The translations under genes and the position numbers were made by a program. Below are positions 4,101 through 58,646 of a stretch of 64,000 nucleotides of DNA, piece by piece. How positions within the stretch are numbered: the stretch's first letter is position 1; each line of letters opens with the position of its first letter. A model generated the notes under the pieces. The model saw nothing but the letters and a program-made list of their open reading frames with translations. It did not search any database and had not been told where the DNA came from. Origin of the DNA: a virus; the IMG/VR virus record IMGVR_UViG_3300000651_000003, positions 1 to 64,000 of that record; one strand, written 5' to 3'.

Positions 4101-4490
4101 TCAGGGGCTCTCGCCGCCCACCAGTTCGTCCTGTTTCTTCAATCGCTCGATGCAGCCTTTGTGACCATGTTTGGCGAGCACGCGCATCATCGCCACCTGA
4201 TGAGTTACGAACGTTCCATGTTCGGTTACGTCCCAAAGAGCGCAGACTAATTGACCCATATCGGAAACAAGGAAATCTTTGGCCCTCTCAGCCGCTCGCT
4301 TTTCTTGCAGGATCACTACCGCATCCGGCTCCGCTCCTACCTCACGGTCGATGAGGGCGGCGACCTTATCAATCTCTTCGTAGGTAAACACAGCAGCAAT
4401 GTTGTTCCACTTGGTGCCGAGAGCCTGTGGCACTTGAAGTTCCCTGAAAATCTTTTCTGCAATCTGCCGCGCTCGTTCACTTGGTGTCAT
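4101..4490 (-). CDS. Hypothetical protein, partly related to 2804-3325
   Basis: Shares the MTPSE start and the AA(L/I)IDREVG segment with 2804-3325, also at DNA level. Confidence 0.65.
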   Translation of the reverse strand: MTPSERARQIAEKIFRELQVPQALGTKWNNIAAVFTYEEIDKVAALIDREVGAEPDAVVILQEKRAAERAKDFLVSDMGQLVCALWDVTEHGTFVTHQVAMMRVLAKHGHKGCIERLKKQDELVGGESP

Positions 4491-4713
4491 GGCTTCTCCG
4501 TTCTATTTCCGCAATAACTTTCCTCACGATGCGAACGCAGTCGTTGTAGTTCAGAAAGGATTCGCCGTTCTTTAACGTCCAAGCGATACTCTTCGGGTCG
4601 CTGTCCTCGTATTCGTCACACGCATCGCAAAGATTGCTAATCACGCCTTCAGTAAAGCCTAAATCTTCCCGACATCGAGCACACTGGCGACGCTTACGCG
4701 CTGCTGCTGTCAT
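4477..4713 (-). CDS. Small CxxC-CxxC zinc-finger-like protein
   Basis: CARC...CDAC; GGAG RBS upstream. Confidence 0.6.
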   Translation of the reverse strand: MTAAARKRRQCARCREDLGFTEGVISNLCDACDEYEDSDPKSIAWTLKNGESFLNYNDCVRIVRKVIAEIERRSHDTK

Positions 4714-4884
4714 GGCTGCTCCTTCGATGCGGCTAATGGATAGACCTTCCCGTCAACTCGGATTGCCGAAACATCTCCCGCTGATTCTTTCGACTTCGCG
4801 TCATACCATAATCCAGAGACGGCACTTTGCCACCAGACACGAATAGCGAATATGGGTTTTAACCGCCTCCGCTGCTGCTGTCAT
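4710..4884 (-). pseudogene. Small gene apparently broken by one extra base (or a sequencing error)
   Basis: ATG 4884 frame stops at 4801. Removing one A from the run at 4857-4860 gives a 57-aa ORF whose TGA overlaps the next ATG (ATGA at 4710-4713). Confidence 0.45.
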
Positions 4885-9400: not shown

Positions 9401-11001
9401 GGTTGATCATAAAGATGCCCAGCCGCCGCAGAGCTTGGTGGAAGCCCATGATCAACCCATCCTCGCCCTCAATATCTTTCCAGTCGGCAGCCACCAACTG
9501 AACTTTGAGTTTGGGGTCGTCGTCAATTACCGACTCGAGTGCGAAGGGCAGGTAGCAGTGAAAATCTCTGACCGCCGCCTCTGCCGTCTCAAAGTTTTTC
9601 CAGTAGCCATGGCCGTCTTGATGCTCTGCCTCGTCGGCGTACTCGACCGCAGCGGCCCTGACGGCCTTCAGGAATGCCCTGCGATTTACCTTGGTCTGCT
9701 TGAATGCGTCTTTTCTCTCGTTGCTCACGCTGTCCTCGCTTTCTCCCACTTGCCTGCCTGTACTTGGGCAGTGCCTTTGTTAATACCACGCTTGATGCAC
9801 TCGGCAACGATTTCGCGCTTGGTGGCATCAGCATTCTTTGCCAGCAACTCGTCAGCGATTGCCCAGACCCGTTTAGTCGAGCCGGCGCTTGACGGATCGC
9901 GTTGGAATTTGGGAACCCTTGCGGTCTTGGTCGCTCTGGCTCCCGAGCCGCCTTCTTCGCCGGCATCTTCCGGGTGCCAGTCGTCGCCATACTTGGCCTT
10001 CATATCAGCCACATAGGCGTCATGGTTGGCTCTGCGATAAGCCGCCAACGAAGCCGGCTCGCCTGACTGTGCCCAGTCAATGAATGACATTGCAGCGCAT
10101 CGCTCGGCATCGCAGGTAGCCACATAACCTTCATAGGCTTTGGTCTGCTCCTTGGTCGCGGTGCCGGGAACTTCCCTGCCGCGATAAAACAAATTGTTCG
10201 GCCCTACTGTTAGGTCGTAGCTCATTATTCCTCCTCGCATTCGCCAGTCTCGCGACCAATCTTGTATTGAATGTCATTCAGCTCTTTCAGCAACTCGACC
10301 AGCCTCTCAGTAACTGCATGAGTTGCCTTCTCAATCCGGTTGTACTCGGAAGGGCTCAAAACATCCCCGAGGTCGTTGAAGTGCTCGAACTCGGCCCTGA
10401 GTTTGTCAACCTTGCAAGCCTTGGCTTCGAGCTGCTCGTATGGCGACTTCATTTCCTCCTCAGACTGGGCAAGCATGTCAGCGAAAGACGAATCTTCCAA
10501 AACCATGTCGGCCAGCTCGCCCGTGGTCATTTCCAGCAACTGCTCTGCAACTGACTCAGCAGCCTTGCGCTTGCGAGTCTCTGCTTTGATCTGCTCCTTG
10601 GTCTTCTTCATTACTCACCTCCTCGAACTCGTTGAAGTCGGTCGTGGCCCTTGACTGGGCAGTTGGTCATAGGAACAATGATGCAGCCATGCTTGTCGAC
10701 CTTGCAAATGCAAAGGTCGTGATCCGAAAGGATCTGAGTCACTTCGTAACGACCGAAGCGCGGGCTGCATAAAGCCTCAAGCGCTTTGCCTGCTGAGTTC
10801 AGTTCACTATGACGTGCCCGGGCTTCGTCATAGTCGTCAAATGTTTCTACTGTCTTGGTAACCACTCTCAATTTACTCACCTCCCACCTCCTTTGCTTTG
10901 AGACCGCATACTTTGCATTCTTCGTCATGCGGGCAATAAGTAACGTTTTCGCAGTTGGGGCACTCGACTAACGGCCGGCTGCATATTGGACATTCATTCA
11001 T
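6435..11001 (-). CDS. Cluster of small hypothetical early genes (6435-6902, 6899-~7141, 7302-7631, 7919-8401, 8404-8799, 8873-9112, 9294-9749, 9725-10240, 10225-10611, 10611-10928, 10873-11001)
   Basis: Co-oriented, abutting ORFs with RBSs. 7302-7631 (MKTIWKF..GTGHP) and 7919-8401 (MWIF..SVV..LHVRAR) resemble common phage hypothetical families. 10873-11001 is a 42-aa Cys-rich finger. Confidence 0.65.
9262..9290 (-). promoter_or_regulatory. Sigma70-like promoter TTGATT-17-TAGACT
   Basis: -35 at 9285-9290, -10 at 9262-9267, 17-bp spacer, intergenic, same -35 as the 11161-11189 promoter. Confidence 0.6.
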
Positions 11002-11029
11002 GGCTAATCTCTCCTTTTGAATTTTTGCG

Positions 11030-11140
11030 GAGCGCAATTCAGAGCGGCCCGTTAAGGCAGGATTTGCTGATGGAGTCTGGCTAGAATTAGAAGAGTCAGT
11101 CTGGTGGGCCGTATTGGCTGGGCCGCTCTGAATTGCGCTC
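11030..11140. repeat. Perfect 21-bp inverted repeat (11030-11050 / 11120-11140)
   Basis: GAGCGCAATTCAGAGCGGCCC and its exact reverse complement, 69 nt apart. Confidence 0.9.
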
Positions 11141-11160
11141 TCGTCCTTAATCATGGCCCT

Positions 11161-11189
11161 ATTATGGGCGTTTTGTTTCTCAAAATCAA
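11161..11189 (-). promoter_or_regulatory. Sigma70-like promoter TTGATT-17-CATAAT driving the leftward cluster
   Basis: -35 at 11184-11189, -10 at 11161-11166, located at the strand switch. Confidence 0.65.
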
Positions 11190-11262
11190 CCTCAAAAACG
11201 AATTTCTTACTGTTGATAATAAAGGAGTTAGAGGCTCAAATTGAGCGCGAGGTAAATTCTAT

Positions 11263-11292
11263 TTGACCTTCTATTGCTGCTGGGCCTATATT
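11263..11292 (+). promoter_or_regulatory. Putative rightward promoter TTGACC-18-TATATT
   Basis: Lies in the divergent intergenic region and is followed by a 15-bp hairpin at 11350-11397. Confidence 0.45.
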
Positions 11293-11411
11293 TTTGAGTA
11301 TCTTGAGAAGGCCTGATGCGGTGCTGGGAATCAACGCATTTGGGCTAATGAGAGGGTCAGAGTTTCTTATTTACCAGTCTGAACTCTGGCCCCTCTCCCG
11401 GGTCCCCTGAG

Positions 11412-12051
11412 ATGCATTGTGATTCGATTTACTCACAGGTCGTAACCCACACCGAAGCTCGGGAAGTGCTGAGTGTCTGGCACCGACCCATTGACCCTGT
11501 GTCTCCTCTGCTAGTCGAGTTTGCTAGTACCGTATACTCAGACTCCTGTGACGAAGCTTTCCTGAAATTCATTAGTTTCACCAAGTCGTGTGATTGTTGG
11601 AGATGCAGCCAGCTTAACAGCAGAGCAGAGCTGACTCCTATCGACTGGTACCACACATTCATCTTATTCGCTGCCTATGGCCCCTGCTCCTTAACCATTA
11701 CAAACTAACATGACAACATTTAACGTAGAATACTGGATGATTGCGTCGCAAGGTTTCGACATAATTCAGGAACCGGCAGTGGCTACTCCTGACAACCCAG
11801 AAGCCCGGGGCGGACAGAGCTTGAGACCTTTTGTCAGGAACGAAGTAATTGCTGAACACCCGGCATTACATGCCCTGAGATTCTCTAGTCAAAACTCGGG
11901 AATAGTTGACTACGCAATCATCTGGGCGACACCAATTACAAAACAAATGTTTGAGCATGTCATGGGGCCTGAGAGGCTGGAGAAGTTTCGCGAGCGGCAA
12001 GCGCTCAATCAAAAGGTCGTCAACATAGCTGAAGGACGCAACGGTGGCTGA
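11412..12051 (+). CDS. Two hypothetical proteins (11412-11708, 11710-12051)
   Basis: Abutting ORFs at the start of the rightward block. Confidence 0.55.
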
Positions 12052-48312: not shown

Positions 48313-51300
48313 ATGGCGAGACCAGATTTCACAGTACCTCTCAATCTAATCAAAAAACCTCTTCTAGACCTTGAAGATTGGGTTGACCAATATCAAACTG
48401 TTCATCTTGATACCGACTATGCCAGCCTGAGCGCCGCTGTGTCTGCAATAGGTTCTGCACAATCGAAGCTAATAATCACAAGACCCAATTTCGTTGTTGG
48501 TACAACTTGTTCAGTGCCTGCTACTCTGCTTATTGAATTCGGTGCTGATGGATTCCTTAATCTGACTAGCGGGCAGACAGCAACCATCCTAAGTCCCACA
48601 AATCTGTGGCCCAACAGACAGCTATTCATTGATTTTGGTGGTAGTGTTAAATTCGCTGCCGGCGTTACAGTTAACCCTGTGTGGTGGCCCGATCTAACTG
48701 CTACTGTACCTGCTCCCACGAATGCTCCTACTCTGTCTGTCGGTGGAACAGGAGTCAGTGCTGGATTAGTGAATGGCACCTCATACAAGGTAGCATACAC
48801 CTATCGGGCTTGGAATGGTGAGACCGGCATATCTCCTGCTAGTGCTGCATTCACAGCAGTCACTAATCAAGGAGTAGCTGCGTTAGCGATCGCCTCACTG
48901 GCAGATAATTCTAAGTGGGCAGTGCAGGCTCACTTCTACATGTCTAACGATGGAGGTACTACTTGGCATAGAACAGACACTGTTACCGATCCTAATTTTC
49001 CGGGAGCTGGAGCTTTCTGTGAATCTGAACCTTTTGGGGGCACCGTGCTTCTTTGGAATGCTTCTGGAGCAGCACCACCGGGAGGTGCAGCTACCACAAC
49101 AACCAAGACTAGTAGAACGGTGAGTCCTCCTGCGAATGCTCCTACTGTCACTCAGCTGGCAAATATAGCAGCAACCACTTACTATGGCGCATTTTCATTC
49201 TTGTGCGGAGACGGAACAGAAAGCGCCTTGAGTGCTATCTCTGCCGGGCAGGCTGTTACTGCTGGTCAATGGATAAATTTCCGTATAAACAATGAACCTC
49301 CCTCAGGGGCTGTTGCAATTCGTAGGTATCTCGGAACAGTGGCATCTGCAGGGTCGATGCACTTGCAGGACACTGTACCTTTATTCCACGTCAATGGCAT
49401 GATTCATACCTACAACTCTGGAGGAGCAGCCCCTTCAGCCGGATCAGCCCACTCAGTTGTTGGTGGATTCCAGAGAGCGTGGGATGCAATTATCGAATCA
49501 GGCGGTGGTGCAATATTAGTAACCACATCGCTGAATTTCCAGTGCCCACTGATACTTCGACTAAAGAATCAGGCTGGAACTACTGTAACAGGTACTCGAG
49601 TTCAAGGCGTAGCGAGTGACCAACTGAATAATGCATCATCAGGCAGGTTAGTTTATACAGGCACGCAGACCGGTATAGTTGGTATTTTAGCTTGTGGTTC
49701 AGCAATTACTTGGAGCGGTCTTGATACCAGAGACGTAAATAACAGAATCAAATACGGTTGGGTAGGATGTGATTTCTATGGTGCAGGCGGTTTCGAATCT
49801 ATCTGGCACAGGTCATACTTCGAAGCTAATTTTGCTGGTGGCATCGGTGGCCACATCTCCGTATTGGGGGCCAGCCCATCATCTCATATATGCTCCGAAC
49901 AGTTTTTTGATAATGTGATATTCAGCGGCAAGGCTTGGGGATTCGACCCTAGAGGAGGACAGACGGGAGACCTAATTTTTAGAAACTGTTCCTTTAACAC
50001 TCAAGGTGATTCGAACTCAGCAAATTCCGGTAACTTGAGACTAGGTGCTGGCTTCAACACACACTTTGAAGGGATGACCTCTTTAGGAGGAGGCGGTGAG
50101 TACAGGATTGCTTGCGTAGGGGATTACCCTCACCCGCTCTACGGTAGATTCACTGGTATAATTGAAGGCTGTTTAAATGATGCGTCGTCAGCTGGAGTAG
50201 CATTCCTGTTCTATAGCTCACCCAATAACAGTGGTGCGGCTTATCAAATGGAATTGATTGGAAATTCTTTCCAATCAAATGACGGAGATACTCTGGCCGT
50301 GTATTCATACGCAGCTCTACAACTAACCCTAGCTGGTAATAAAGGACCCGGTAGGCTTGCTTGGATAAACTTCACTGCTACTAGCAGTTTTTCCGCTGGT
50401 TCGAACCCGTTTATCACAGCAGTAGGCGGTGACAATTTCCTGTCTCAAACATTAGGCGATGTCAAAATCAATGATTCAGTACACATCGACTATACTCGTA
50501 AAGGTCTCACCCTATACACGTCCAGCCTAGCGCTACATAATGAGTCTGGGCAGAAATCTCTCATAGGTACGAATGCTGGCGGAGACATCTCAGTATCGCC
50601 GGCGAGAAGCGTACAAGTCAATGCAAGCACACCTGTAATCGTTAGCACGAACACAGACTCAAACATCAACGCCCCGCGTGATATCTACATCGATGGGCGC
50701 TTTGCTTATATCGCGTGCTACTCTGCCAACAGCATTCGCATCCACGACATTTCGAATCCGCTTTCGCTGGCAAACGGAATCAGCGCGCTGACGGATGCGA
50801 CGAATCTAAACGGTGCCTACAAACTGTGGGTTGCTGGCGGCTATGCTTTTGTATGTTGCGCCAATGCCGGCCGACTGACTGCGGTCGATGTCCGGAATCC
50901 TAACGTGCCGGCCGTTGCGAGTTCGCTTGCCGATGCCACCAACTTCGGCGCGGGTCTTATCGGCATTCAGGTGGTTGGCAGATACGCATACGTGGTCAGC
51001 GAGGCGGGCAATCGAATCACCATCGTCGACGTGAGCAATCCGGGCGCGATGGTCGTTAAAGGTTCATTGCAGGACGCTACCAATCTGAATGGCGCTTATG
51101 CCATCAGAGTGCTTGGCAAGTACGCCTATGTAGGATGCTTCGATGGAAATCGCGTGACGGTAGTTAACATCAGCAATCCTGCGTCGCCCACGGTTGTTGG
51201 CTCAGTTCAAGACGCCACAAATCTCGGCCACCCTGCGCGAGTATATCTCTCGGGTAAGTACCTGTATGTTGCGTGCCAGTCAGTGAATCGCCTTACGGTG

Positions 51301-52945: not shown

Positions 52946-53845
52946 ATGAGAATCAGAATTGACGCAGAAGTAGAGGGAACCGAACAGGTTCAAACGTACA
53001 ACGGAGAATCTCCCACGGAAGCAGTTGCTTTCTTAGATAAACTCGAAACCGAGAAGACATTCGTCCTATCATGTAACATGAAAAATGTGAAGCCCGGGGG
53101 AGAATTCTCGTTGGCTCGTAGAGTGACAGGTAAAGATTGTGCGGCGCTACTGTCGGACATAGTTTCGTGGTTGCAGGAACACGGAGCTCCCAAACCAGAA
53201 GCACCGAAGGAATAAATGGAATCTCTCGTAACAACAGTTACGGCAGCGGAACCAATCCGCAATCCTCCTACGCCTTCAAAGTTAGAAGGCATGCAGATTA
53301 CGAGGTCTGGGCGTAGCTGGTGGGCTGTTAGATATCAATCGGGACGAGTTATCAATGAATGGGCAACGCTACAATTCACTAAACTATTCACTCCTCTAGG
53401 ACCTGCACCTACATCTCGCTGGGAAGACATTTCAAAACAAAACATCAATGGTCTCTATCTGTTTTGCCCGAATGGTAGAGTGGGTGCACTTGAAGGTGAT
53501 TACGAGTACTTCCAATTGAAGGTGGGTGGTGCTCATGCGGTATTCTCATTTGGGAATCGGCCAGTAAAGGTAAAGGACAAGCATATTAGAGCTCATATCA
53601 TAGGCAGGGTAGTAGGCGAAAATGGCGAGTGCGAATGTTACGCTTGGGAGTATCAGGAAACACCTTATTCAACATTCTTTTGCCCTCGGTGCGGAGGATG
53701 TGGTAGAAAAAGAAAATCTTGCCCGGGCTGCGGTAGCCAAGAATTGCGGCGAGACCCACTAATACTTTTTCGAGATAATGTGACCAACATGGCCTATGAG
53801 CAGATAGGGACGATTTCTCTGGGCCATCATACAGGAATCAGGTAA
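52946..53845 (+). CDS. Two hypothetical proteins (52946-53215; 53216-53845 with CxxC zinc ribbon)
   Basis: RBSs present; CPRCGGC..CPGC. Confidence 0.6.
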
Positions 53846-54600
53846 TTGCGCTTTCTGACGATCGAACGATCACCAAGGTGTTTAAGTATGTTCCACAATG
53901 GGGCGGGGGCAGAAAGAACTGAGATTAGCTCAACAGGATACGGTGCTTGGCGAGTGACTCTTCCCGTGAATCGTTCGGTCTTCTGAGAGCGTACAGCCGG
54001 ATAAAGCCGCTCCCGGCCTAATCTATAGAAAGGACTCACTGATGGTTAGGTCAGTGATTGATTGAGAGGCCGACATCACAGGGATTGTTAGGCGAAAAAG
54101 GATGAAGAAGAGAGCGAAGTATGACAGCCAAAGCCTGCCCCGGTGGGAAAGGGCGTAACGACCTTGATGGCCTTGTCGGGGCAGGAAATTAAAATCGATG
54201 CTTTGTGGTGATTGAATTTGGCAATGACCAGAGAGCAGCCAACTCTCAAAGAATCAGGTACGCGAGCACGGCCTGATGCTTCGCTTGAGTGAGGTGAGCG
54301 AAGGTGATCTTTTACAACTCAGCGTTGTGCTGAGTTCTAAGTGGTTATAATTTACCACGATTTGGCGTGTCCGGGTGTTGCAACACTCGGCCTATTTCAA
54401 GCCGGGGCAAAAGAAGATGCTGCTTTAGGGACTCCACATCGCTGTCTAATGCTATCGGTAAAGAACTGGGTATGTGTTTTGATTGAGGGCGACTGAGTCT
54501 TTATCGGTAAGCATTCGTTTTTAGTTGAAAGACTAAAAATTGTCTTAAGCGTAGTTGGGAGCGGTAGGTGGAGAATGAAGCATTTTGCCGCTCTCAACTT
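53846..54600 (+). ncRNA. Large structured noncoding RNA candidate (~750 nt), class unassigned
   Basis: No credible ORF; at least 12 helices; G-U pairs and a GAAA tetraloop are consistent with the + strand only. Confidence 0.8.
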
Positions 54601-54617
54601 CAAAAAAAAAGGAGTTT

Positions 54618-55067
54618 ATGAAAACACCACTGATTATAGTTGCAGTAGTGATAATGATTCTCGCGACGTTAGCGGGAATTTCTCTTGCTCGTAAACGAGC
54701 TTCACTGCTACATATTCCAAGATTCGCGATCACATATACTAAGGAAAACGGACTCAGCGCGATGTCGCCAATGCCGTGGTCAGACCCTGAAGAGTTAGTA
54801 ATTGATGTGAATTTCGTTGACTACAAGCCTCACTGGATTGCATTTGAGTTTGCAGGTGATGAGCTGCGGGAAACGTTAGTTCAAGCATATGACAAAACTG
54901 GATCTTTGATAGAAACTCAACAAATCACCAAGCTAGACAAGGATAGGCGACTGACTGCACAACAAACAGGCTACAGGCAGTACCGGTTCACTCGCCTAAG
55001 CGGCCCCGACGTTCGCATTACAGGAATCTTTTTTGATTCAGTACCACCAGAACAAAGACGAAGGTAA
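54618..55067 (+). CDS. Membrane-anchored or secreted protein
   Basis: AAGGAG RBS; N-terminal hydrophobic helix. Confidence 0.65.
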   Translation: MKTPLIIVAVVIMILATLAGISLARKRASLLHIPRFAITYTKENGLSAMSPMPWSDPEELVIDVNFVDYKPHWIAFEFAGDELRETLVQAYDKTGSLIETQQITKLDKDRRLTAQQTGYRQYRFTRLSGPDVRITGIFFDSVPPEQRRR

Positions 55068-55074
55068 AAACTAA

Positions 55075-56640
55075 TTGAGACGCAAGATCGCATTAGTAGT
55101 CGGGTTTGTTTTGTTGTTTGCGGCCCTGCTTGATGGTTGTAGGAAAAAGGTAATCCCTCCCTCAGAGCCAAGCCCGACACCAGCCCCAGAGAGTTCTCCA
55201 TCTCCCTCTCCTTCTGAAACTCCGTTTATCGAACATGAAGTGATTGGCCCAGTGCCAAGCGTGAAGCAGAAAGTGCAGCGTTCATCGGCCGCAGCTGCGA
55301 CACCAAGCGCAAGTCCCTGCACACCAGCACCGCCAAAAGATCCGAATGCGAGCTATACGATTAGGGCAGGAGTAGTACAGCAGTGGGCAAACTGCTCTAT
55401 TGTTATCTTGTTCGATGGTGATAGCACTGCAACGACATTAGGATTAGCTATGTCAGGGCAAGACACAACGCCAAGCATCGGGCAACATGCAACACTCTAC
55501 TACTATCAAAACAATGTTTATCTGGCAGCGTTTCCGTCGGCTCCGTTTGTAGGTCCATCTCCTACTCCCACGCCTCCCTCGCGAGCGGTGCAAGGAGTCG
55601 TAAGAGTAGCCGGTGCACCGTTCCAAGGACCAATGATTATCAATCGGCAGGGCAGCACGGTAGCTCAAATCACAGGTACAGCAGCAGATGGTACATTTTC
55701 ATTCTCAAGTTCGGTTATCGGCTCAACGCTTGAAGCCAGCTATGGCGCATATCTTTTTAATACAGTTGTTGTAGATAGTTCGTCGCCTGCGTTTGTTCTG
55801 AACGGAATGCCGCCCCCTACGCCGACTCCTACACCGATCCCCAGCCCCACTGCAACACCTACACCGACGCCAACCCCCGGGCCGTCTCCAACGCCTACTC
55901 CGACACCGGTGCCGGGTTTATACTTGTCAGGTGGCACTTTCTATTCGGGTGGCGGTCAATTCAACTACACTTACATTCAAGTACTCGACGCGAACCGAGT
56001 TGAGTTGTGGCGTTATCAAGAACAGGATTCAACTTATCTATACCCGTTGACGGCTAATGGCAACTACATAGTCAGGCCGATGATCGAGATTTGGAACGGG
56101 GAATACAACGCCCAGCCGACTGAATATCAAGTCAGCGTATGTGGTCAGCCGGTGAGTAATTTGAACTTTACGATTGGACCGTCAAGCAACTACCCGCTTG
56201 GTAGCCCAATAGTGGTGCCGTGCGCTAGCCCATCTCCTACACCAACACCTAGCCCAACGCCATCGCCAACTCCTTTGCCTACTCCTACACCAACACCGAC
56301 CCCGACACCCACGCCGGTGCCTACTCCTAATCCAACGCCTAGCCCATCTCCAAGTCCTATTCGAGATGTAATACCGCCAACTATTTCGATAACGTCCCCG
56401 GGGAAAACAGTGACGAGAAAAACCGACGTAGTATTTTCAGTAAACGCGAGTGACAATGTAGGAGTGACGTCTGTTGGATTCTTTGTAAATGGAACGCCAA
56501 TAGGTTGGGTATATACAGCCCCTTATCAAGTTACATGGCATGTTCCGCCGCCAGCCAATACGAATTACACCTTAACTGCGGTGGCCCGAGATGCTGCCGG
56601 CAATGCCACTACGACTACTTTAACGGTCACAGCAAGATGA
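55075..56640 (+). CDS. Putative lipoprotein with Pro-Thr/Pro-Ser linkers and C-terminal bacterial Ig-like domain
   Basis: Signal peptide ending LLDG-C; (PT)n tracts; D..PPT.SITSP...ASDNVGV..V.F.VNG...APY..W...LTA.ARDAAGN. Confidence 0.8.
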   Translation: MRRKIALVVGFVLLFAALLDGCRKKVIPPSEPSPTPAPESSPSPSPSETPFIEHEVIGPVPSVKQKVQRSSAAAATPSASPCTPAPPKDPNASYTIRAGVVQQWANCSIVILFDGDSTATTLGLAMSGQDTTPSIGQHATLYYYQNNVYLAAFPSAPFVGPSPTPTPPSRAVQGVVRVAGAPFQGPMIINRQGSTVAQITGTAADGTFSFSSSVIGSTLEASYGAYLFNTVVVDSSSPAFVLNGMPPPTPTPTPIPSPTATPTPTPTPGPSPTPTPTPVPGLYLSGGTFYSGGGQFNYTYIQVLDANRVELWRYQEQDSTYLYPLTANGNYIVRPMIEIWNGEYNAQPTEYQVSVCGQPVSNLNFTIGPSSNYPLGSPIVVPCASPSPTPTPSPTPSPTPLPTPTPTPTPTPTPVPTPNPTPSPSPSPIRDVIPPTISITSPGKTVTRKTDVVFSVNASDNVGVTSVGFFVNGTPIGWVYTAPYQVTWHVPPPANTNYTLTAVARDAAGNATTTTLTVTAR

Positions 56641-56693
56641 AAGAAGTGCAAATAGAGATGGCACTTAAGTAAAGATATAATCCCTGTTGTAAA

Positions 56694-56942
56694 ATGGCGG
56701 AAGACCAAACAGTTCAAATCAACCCGGCTGGCAGCGGTCAGCTTATTCGCACTCTGCAAGTGCAGACAGTGGGCGTGGGTAGTACTGGTCAGCAAACCAC
56801 CCAGAGCGTACTCATGCAGGTAGTTTCAATAGCAGACGAGAACGGAATACCGATAAATCTCGACGCAATAAACCTGAATGAGAAAATATTAGAAACTCTT
56901 GAAGACATTCGTACGCTTCTGGGAGCAATAGTGTCGAAGTAG
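56694..56942 (+). CDS. Hypothetical protein
   Basis: 82-aa ORF preceded by TATAAT. Confidence 0.55.
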   Translation: MAEDQTVQINPAGSGQLIRTLQVQTVGVGSTGQQTTQSVLMQVVSIADENGIPINLDAINLNEKILETLEDIRTLLGAIVSK

Positions 56943-56957
56943 AAGGAGAACATCTCA

Positions 56958-57755
56958 ATGAGCCTTGAAACAATCATGCAAGGAATTGTCAGTAGATTCT
57001 TGCCACAACCTCAGGCGGACAACCAAGATGACATTCTTCGTCTATCTCGGTACAAAGACGCCTACATACTTCCGGTTGTTCGGAAGAATCACGCCCTTGC
57101 GGATGAAGGCTCCTACTTTGTAACTAACAATGCTCAGACTGCGATCGCTGGAGATACATCAGTAGCGTTCACCGCCACCAAGCCTACCATCTGGATTTTC
57201 AACTCGGACTCCCCGGGCAACCAGTCAGCCAAAAGAATTCACCTTGACTACATTTACTTGTTGTCAGGAGGCACTGCATATTCGAATGCCACCTCGAATA
57301 CCGGGTTCTTCTGTGCAGTAGTGATTGATAATCCATCAGCTGCAACGACAGGTGGTTCCGATTTAACTCCTAACATAGTTTGTCCAAACATTGATGTCAG
57401 CAAAAAGGCTTCGATTGCTACTGTAAGGTATGGCGCCCTGACCGCTCCTGCTGCAACCCAGAACGCTAGAACGATTGTTGGTCAGAGATTGCTGCGCGCG
57501 CCAGTTTCAGGTACTGCAATCACATTGGCCAACGTCGACCAGTTCATGTTGAACTTCGGGGGCGTGGAACCCAATCTTGCGCTTCCTAATGCAGCATCAG
57601 CGACCGTGGAAGCTAACGCAGTTGGCCGCATGTTGCATCTGCCCCCAGTTGTGATAGGCCCCGGCCAGTCGGCATTTATTTACCTATTCATGGTAGCAAA
57701 CAGCGCTGGGGTTGGTGGAACGATGTACCCTGAAATCGCATGGTGGGAGAGATAA
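56958..57755 (+). CDS. Putative virion protein, paralog 1
   Basis: Similar along its length to 57760-58584; both end WWER. Confidence 0.75.
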   Translation: MSLETIMQGIVSRFLPQPQADNQDDILRLSRYKDAYILPVVRKNHALADEGSYFVTNNAQTAIAGDTSVAFTATKPTIWIFNSDSPGNQSAKRIHLDYIYLLSGGTAYSNATSNTGFFCAVVIDNPSAATTGGSDLTPNIVCPNIDVSKKASIATVRYGALTAPAATQNARTIVGQRLLRAPVSGTAITLANVDQFMLNFGGVEPNLALPNAASATVEANAVGRMLHLPPVVIGPGQSAFIYLFMVANSAGVGGTMYPEIAWWER

Positions 57756-57759
57756 CAAA

Positions 57760-58584
57760 ATGGAGCTTCTACAACAAGCGAAGGGGCTAGTCAGCAGAGT
57801 ACTGCCACAGGCCCAAGCCGACAACCAAGTAGATACTATACGCCTCTCTCGGTTTCAAGAGGTGTACGGGATCCCGATCGTTCGCAAGCAGCACGTACTC
57901 GCTGATGAAGGCTCGTACTTCGTGACGAACAACGGGCAGGCCGCGATCACAGCTCAGGTCTTACAGCAGAATGCCACCTCCATCGACCCTACCAAACCAA
58001 CGCTGGCGATTTTCAACTCTGACTCCGACGGCAATGCTGCTGCGAAGAGAATTTTTCTTGATTATGTGCACCTGCTTGCTGGTGGTACTGCATACTCGGT
58101 CGGCGCTGCGGCAGTTCAGGTGGCAATGCTGTTGACCATTATCATTGATGCTCAAGGCGGAGCCTCTGGAGGAACAGACTTAACTCCTAACATAATCTGC
58201 CCGAACATTGACGTAGGGAAAAAGTCATCTCAGGCAGTAGTAAGATTCGGAGCCTTGACTGCACCCGCTCTGTCAGCAAATAGTCGTCAAGTGGTAGGAG
58301 CTCGGTTATTCCGCATGTGCCTGAGTCAGGGAGCTAGCGCGAACCTGTCTGTCGCTAACCTTGACTTCTGGCATATGAACTTCGGTGGTGTTGAACCGAA
58401 CATGGCTCTTCCCAATCCCGGTTCACCCACTATCGCAACTAGCATGTGGGGTTCGAATATGTGTCTGCCCCCAGTAATTCTTGGCCCCGGAGACTCGATG
58501 TGGATGTACATAAGTGTGAATGCATCTGCCGGCACCGTAGTAGCTGGAAACTTGATCCCAGAAATTGGTTGGTGGGAACGGTAA
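57760..58584 (+). CDS. Putative virion protein, paralog 2
   Basis: Shared LADEGSYFVTNN, GG.DLTPNI.CPNIDV, NFGGVEPN.ALPN, PEI.WWER. Confidence 0.75.
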   Translation: MELLQQAKGLVSRVLPQAQADNQVDTIRLSRFQEVYGIPIVRKQHVLADEGSYFVTNNGQAAITAQVLQQNATSIDPTKPTLAIFNSDSDGNAAAKRIFLDYVHLLAGGTAYSVGAAAVQVAMLLTIIIDAQGGASGGTDLTPNIICPNIDVGKKSSQAVVRFGALTAPALSANSRQVVGARLFRMCLSQGASANLSVANLDFWHMNFGGVEPNMALPNPGSPTIATSMWGSNMCLPPVILGPGDSMWMYISVNASAGTVVAGNLIPEIGWWER

Positions 58585-58609
58585 GGACCGCTAACATTCT
58601 TTCTTGAAC

Positions 58610-58641
58610 AGGGTCGGGTCGTGTTTCGGCCCGACCTTTTA
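58610..58641 (+). terminator. Intrinsic terminator
   Basis: AGGGTCGGGTCG / CGGCCCGACCTT stem running into TTTT. Confidence 0.65.
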
Positions 58642-58646
58642 ATTAA

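Follow-up and report, generated by a model that had tools for sequence, protein, structure and literature searches.

A gene-free, helix-dense stretch among the tail genes of a siphovirus as a candidate for a large phage RNA

Few classes of large, protein-free phage RNA exist. Recent work showed that two of them, GOLLD and ROOL, assemble into cages made of RNA alone; tRNA genes often neighbour them in phages and prophages. The RNase III sites of the T7 type are single elements of about 60 nt. GOLLD and ROOL are large ornate RNAs, often phage- or prophage-borne, that have been studied by cryo-EM (bioRxiv 10.1101/2024.12.08.627333).

The IMG/VR record IMGVR_UViG_3300000651_000003 is linear, 97,308 bp long and an estimated 87% complete, and the window that we analysed is its first 64 kb (64,000 nucleotides). 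The phage is of the siphovirus type, and the + strand carries genes for terminase, portal, major head protein (phrog_1005), a 977-aa tape measure and large tail proteins. Among the tail genes we found the following stretch, which we regard as a plausible and credible, though unproven, candidate for a new large RNA of phages:

53846..54617, + strand, helix-dense gene-free stretch of 772 nt, from the stop codon of g209 (53843-53845) to the ATG of g149 (54618)

The gene-free stretch and its predicted fold

The longest start-to-stop ORF in 53846-54617 has 70 aa and the longest stop-to-stop frame 76 aa, both strands considered, and none of the nine longest frames matched Pfam at E<=1. Coding is excluded because 1-nt indels separate the window copy from its only homolog, on the contig L058 (described below). 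Coding in another frame or genetic code was also considered and rejected: translation table 11 leaves the flanking genes open, Pfam gave no match, and 1-nt indels set the two variants apart. A translated frame of the stretch compared with a protein database found no look-alikes of spurious ORFs. The preliminary description of this DNA had called the stretch noncoding, and the limit of 76 codons, the indels and the Pfam result agree with it. It had further called it the longest gene-free stretch of the genome, which is not quite accurate: positions 10929-11709 are slightly longer, with 781 nt holding no ORF of at least 100 aa (smaller ORFs there are not in the count).

This other region lies between divergently transcribed gene blocks and holds a long inverted repeat whose arms each measure roughly 25-30 bp (GCGGAGCGCAATTCAGAGCGGCCCG...). 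Its fold has a z-score of -4.1 on the + strand, and the 300-nt piece starting at 10951 ranks third in the whole window. This region might serve in regulation or as an origin.

The minimum free energy (MFE) of the whole stretch is -275.9 kcal/mol on the + strand, with z -5.6 against dinucleotide shuffles, compared with z -3.35 on the - strand (20 shuffles for each strand). Four pieces were each set against 100 dinucleotide shuffles:

53846-53995, 5' piece, z -2.8 on the + strand and -0.8 on the - strand
53996-54190, middle piece, z -1.1 on the + strand and -1.3 on the - strand, not significant
54187-54400, 3' piece a, z -4.2 on the + strand and -4.1 on the - strand
54401-54610, 3' piece b, z -4.4 on the + strand and -0.7 on the - strand

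Folding is significant in three of the four pieces, and in two of these (53846-53995 and 54401-54610) on the + strand only; five 210-nt pieces of the flanking genes, used as controls, gave z from -1.2 to +1.7 over both strands. When 300-nt sliding windows were corrected for GC content, the + strand windows starting at 54301 and 54451 took ranks 1 and 2 of 425 overlapping windows; on the - strand of the same scan, 53846-54617 was ordinary. The structure signal of the stretch is real, local and largely specific to the + strand. This bias fits an RNA made from the strand on which all the neighbouring genes are transcribed, and, as a lead only, the domain-wise z-scores are compatible with a chain of separately folding modules. 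Both the unusual degree of structure and the G-U positions had been pointed out in the preliminary description, the latter as a sign of an RNA on the + strand. The z-scores bear out the first, and the 35 G-U pairs among the 251 pairs of the + strand MFE fold are in keeping with the second.

The nearly equal z-scores of piece 54187-54400 on the two strands indicate mostly Watson-Crick palindromes. Such equal stability would also be seen in an element that works as DNA, for instance an origin, a site of packaging or recombination, or an array of protein-binding palindromes. Such an element seems highly improbable to us for the stretch as a whole, because the 5' domain and 54401-54610 are significant on the + strand only, the location is in the middle of the tail module and remote from the genes for terminase and replication, and iterated repeats are absent.

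The predicted fold of the + strand can be divided as follows:

53847..53993, + strand, 5' domain with an outer helix, about 53847-53873 with 53966-53993, around a branched interior
54036..54186, + strand, hypervariable middle module with hairpin 54036-54057, a poorly defined stretch and a closed stem-loop
54187..54400, + strand, 3' domain a, a multi-branch junction with hairpins 54231-54247, 54253-54277, 54279-54303, 54316-54336, 54341-54358 and 54371-54390
54401..54599, + strand, 3' domain b, with an imperfect hairpin at about 54448-54515, a GAAA-loop hairpin at 54518-54539 and a terminal hairpin at 54553-54599
54600..54620, + strand, A9 tract, AGGAG Shine-Dalgarno and ATG of g149, directly 3' of the terminal hairpin, as read from the sequence

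Every helix listed in the preliminary description is present in this fold, with the exception that 54448-54464/54498-54515 is imperfect and shifted in register. The stem-loop of the middle module is closed by a perfect 9-bp helix (54134-54142/54177-54185), and the terminal hairpin has 18 bp and a stability of -24.0 kcal/mol on the + strand against -13.8 on the - strand.

The arrangement at the 3' end brings in another explanation, a purely cis-acting intercistronic leader. Here the late mRNA lying upstream would be shielded at its 3' end, and the g149-g521 message at its 5' end, by the stacked hairpins. These would also offer processing sites for RNase III or RNase E and would gate the translation of g149 by hiding or exposing its Shine-Dalgarno. 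The 18-bp hairpin, the A9 tract and the AGGAG stand directly before the g149 ATG, as a leader would require, and the alifold consensus of the two known copies pairs the Shine-Dalgarno region with an upstream GGACUCC. Against the leader, this pairing is not consistent between fold predictions.

The variant copy and the search for relatives

The sole homolog that we found is L058:5631-6448, on a contig of a JGI metagenome from a variant of the same phage. Beyond it, blastn and nhmmer searches of all collected related loci found no homolog of the stretch, nor did blastn against 50,697 records of cultured phages or against five records of capsid relatives, or blast against 764 sampled genomes of Dehalococcoidia and Dehalococcoidales (401 from the class, 363 from the order), the class and order of a MAG that carries the tail module. 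Three exact 18-19-mers from the conserved parts gave only two chance matches in IMG/VR.

Outside a rebuilt middle segment the variant copy is about 99% identical, and the flanking genes have 96-97% nucleotide identity. In the 5' 190 nt there are six substitutions, one of which converts a U-G pair to C-G; the 3' 430 nt have two substitutions and four 1-nt indels, and at 3' domain b 208 nt are identical. The middle segment 54036-54186 (151 nt) has 33 mismatches and 58 gap columns, and the module of the variant is 46 nt longer with one extra hairpin. Two of the helices are nevertheless kept in the rebuilt segment: 54036-40/54053-57 changes from UCACU/AGUGA to UCACC/GGUGG, and 54150-53/54162-65 from AGGG/CCUU to AUGG/CCAU. 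The fold of the variant copy has z -10.3 overall and z -2.7 for its middle part, compared with -1.1 for the middle of the window copy.

Among the 237 predicted pairs of the alifold consensus, built from these two sequences, three show double compensatory changes and eight show one-sided compatible changes, and all but one of the changes fall in the poorly alignable middle module. Two sequences allow no covariation statistics. Of the differences outside the middle module, 6 of 11 are in unpaired positions by single-sequence MFE folds, so that an enrichment at unpaired positions, also considered, is not significant. By eye, a loop changing from AGUGAG to GGUGAG (about 54288) seemed to accompany the change from CUCACU to CUCACC (about 54036); the local hairpin explains this equally well, and we rejected a loop-helix co-change.

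Purifying selection was likewise rejected as a conclusion from the two substitutions in 428 nt set against the synonymous divergence (pS) of about 0.09-0.12 in the adjacent genes, because equally identical coding blocks occur elsewhere in the pair: 48746-49175 and 55095-55524, each of 430 nt, show no substitution. That the 5' and 3' parts are nearly identical is thus no proof of selection, since the divergence is mosaic and coding blocks are just as identical.

The mosaic is strong over the pair of genomes, with identical 430-nt blocks beside blocks with pS of 0.32, and points to frequent recombination. The variant contig also holds, at 4172-4729, an extra ORF of 185 aa between g239 and g89 that the window is without.

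The stretch could also be a functionless remnant, either a recombination spacer left by the entry of the cassette or the decayed remains of a gene or mobile element, with hairpins that are incidental or left over. Its only known homolog belongs to a variant of this phage, so it is lineage-specific, as a remnant would be; its conservation can be explained by the mosaic identity blocks, and its middle part decays fast. We still hold a remnant to be unlikely. Strand-specific excess stability in three sub-domains would be unexpected for decayed coding sequence, and the flanking genes have z near 0; neither inverted nor direct repeats were found at its ends, the 97-kb genome holds only this one copy, and no frame shows a trace of a protein family; and phage genomes seldom retain 0.8 kb of junk. 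A MITE or other small mobile element was rejected on the same single copy and missing terminal repeats, and a search for antisense or guide complementarity to the phage's own genome gave chance 11-14-mers only.

The preliminary description had proposed a check with Infernal against Rfam, which we carried out. With Rfam 15 at gathering thresholds there were 0 matches in the whole window, and with permissive filters at E<=10 the region 53600-54800 gave only three noise matches (E 4-8) to unrelated small RNAs. The covariance models of GOLLD (RF01998) and ROOL (RF03087) did not match the stretch at either setting, and no match came from those of OLE, RNase P, tmRNA, 6S, HEARO and the other large Rfam families. 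The stretch therefore matches no known family, and the suggestion of a divergent member of GOLLD, ROOL or the like was not borne out. In the 64-kb window, ARAGORN predicted neither a tRNA nor a tmRNA, and neither a reverse transcriptase (PF00078) nor a tyrosine integrase (PF00589) was found in the 97-kb record. No adjacent tRNA, reverse transcriptase or endonuclease gene had been reported beforehand; the absence holds for tRNA over the 64-kb window and for reverse transcriptase over the 97-kb record.

That the stretch belongs, in highly diverged form, to one of the catalogued families (GOLLD, ROOL, OLE, a group I or II intron, RNase P or tmRNA) is to us the most remote of possibilities. The likeness to GOLLD and ROOL is confined to size and phage location, the Rfam 15 and ARAGORN searches returned nothing beyond the noise described, and the flanking genes are intact, so that no intron splits a gene here. 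A group I or group II intron (Rfam models RF00028 and RF00029) was rejected for its lack of an Rfam match and of a reverse transcriptase, and because g209 is complete, with an end that agrees with those of its 78 homologs, and g149 begins with a Shine-Dalgarno and ATG of its own.

The insertion in the tail module

The stretch and its neighbours are arranged as follows:

53216..53845, + strand, g209, upstream gene of a conserved tail-module family, complete, C-terminus aligned with its homologs, with a CxxC...CxxC insert
54618..55067, + strand, g149, downstream orphan with an N-terminal hydrophobic segment (likely membrane)
53846..58646, + strand, insertion of about 4.8 kb between g209 and g1011, containing the structured stretch, g149, g521, a small ORF, g265 and g290

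The family of g209 has 78 homologs and no Pfam or PHROG match, and the closest relatives of g209 are P0002, P0003 and P0004, with 48-55% identity. Searches of IMG/VR for related loci with g209, g149, the 1500-aa tail protein or the alignment of the g209 family were unsuccessful, as was a search for this family in the capsid relatives. Its zinc-ribbon-like CxxC...CxxC insert, about 30 aa near the C-terminus, is present only in the window phage, P0002 and P0004 among 22 aligned sequences. For g149, the sole other known version outside the window's own record is that of the L058 variant.

In the relatives, a homolog of g239 (60-70% identical) is followed by a homolog of g209 and usually by a g1011-like repeat protein. 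The gaps are 0-240 nt, and no gap of 0.7 kb was found in 52 metagenomic loci and two contigs of Dehalococcoidales MAGs. Judged by this gene order, an accessory insertion specific to the lineage begins with the stretch. On the two MAG contigs (L116 and L117), which carry the module of g239, g209 and g1011-like genes, g239 is 63-68% identical, a weak hint at the host range of the tail module. The closest cultured relatives of the capsid are Arthrobacter phages, at 51%.

The neighbouring genes of the stretch are all on the + strand. We found no promoter- or terminator-like site bracketing the stretch and no terminator-like site between g209 and the stretch, so it should be made within the late transcript. 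Flanking repeats, iterated repeats and a second copy in the 97-kb genome were all absent.

These observations return to the cis-acting leader. The lack of an own promoter or terminator, the orientation shared with the neighbours and the co-occurrence of the stretch and the orphan g149 in both known copies are all as expected of a leader. On the other hand, the stretch has about 770 nt and at least 15 helices, far above the sizes known for stabilisers and RNase III sites, and the relatives bridge the same gene junction with gaps of only 0-240 nt. With these points and the inconsistent prediction of the Shine-Dalgarno pairing, we think it rather unlikely that the stretch is a leader and nothing else.

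Further along the insertion, g521 (55075-56640) has a lipoprotein-like N-terminal signal (...LLDGC), long linkers rich in Pro, Thr and Ser, and a C-terminal Ig-like domain of the Big_7 type; a role at the surface or in exclusion is conceivable for this member of the accessory cassette. A moron-like unit follows at 56653-58640. It begins with a promoter-like site, TAGAGA-17-TATAAT (56653-56681), continues with a small ORF at about 56694-56942 and the paralogs g265 and g290, whose N-termini are about 60% identical, and ends with a GC-rich terminator-like hairpin and T-run at about 58611-58640, just 5' of g1011.

Interpretation and comparison with known systems

Our preferred explanation, to which we tentatively give a little less than an even chance, is that the stretch is the template of a structured RNA of about 750-770 nt, specific to the lineage and built of several domains, made from the + strand on the late (tail-gene) transcript. 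The RNA would have three parts: a closed domain at the 5' end, a middle that is rebuilt rapidly, and a 3' half in which a multi-hairpin junction is followed by three long hairpins. We infer its transcription and processing, any function in trans, and that it acts through its folded shape; most likely it would be a stable RNA trimmed from the polycistronic transcript. The last hairpin, the A-tract and the Shine-Dalgarno may double as the 5' leader of g149.

This structured RNA is supported by the absence of an ORF, the 1-nt indels, the z-scores of -5.6 and, in the variant, -10.3, and the + strand signal of the sub-domains. Further support comes from the middle module, which was rebuilt with helices kept and is structured in the variant (z -2.7), and from the position of the stretch as an insertion relative to 52 metagenomic and two MAG loci, with neighbours in the same orientation. 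It is weakened because the comparison has two sequences only, because no own promoter or terminator is seen and because near-identity is unremarkable for this pair of genomes; in addition, the middle module of the window folds no better than shuffles and the 6 of 11 differences at unpaired positions are not significant.

A more far-reaching proposal, which we consider rather doubtful, is that the stretch represents a new class of large ornate phage RNA, with 5' and 3' scaffolds that frame a fast-evolving, specificity-setting middle, standing at the head of a mobile accessory cassette of the tail region. The middle module might then set the specificity for a target in the host or in a rival phage, or for the partners of self-assembly, and the carriers might be phages that infect uncultured bacteria of soil or sediment, perhaps Dehalococcoidales.

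At present the stretch is an orphan candidate on thermodynamic support, and we flag it for more related contigs or metatranscriptomes. A further large phage RNA unrelated to GOLLD and ROOL would, if true, widen a small set, and its site in the structural operon, together with a conserved scaffold round a rebuilt insert, would make it a compact system for studying the role of an RNA in infection.

Two kinds of described system can be compared with it. As with RNase III hairpins of the T7 type and intercistronic stabilisers, hairpins stand here between co-transcribed late genes, the last one directly before a ribosome-binding site; unlike those single elements of about 60 nt, the stretch has about 770 nt and closed multi-helix domains. 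It differs from GOLLD and ROOL in that it has no covariance-model match and no tRNA genes in the 64-kb window, lies within an operon of tail genes with no promoter or terminator of its own, and is known from a single phage lineage. With GOLLD and ROOL it shares a size of about 0.6-0.8 kb, carriage by a phage, many helices with multi-branch junctions, and independence from any associated protein gene.
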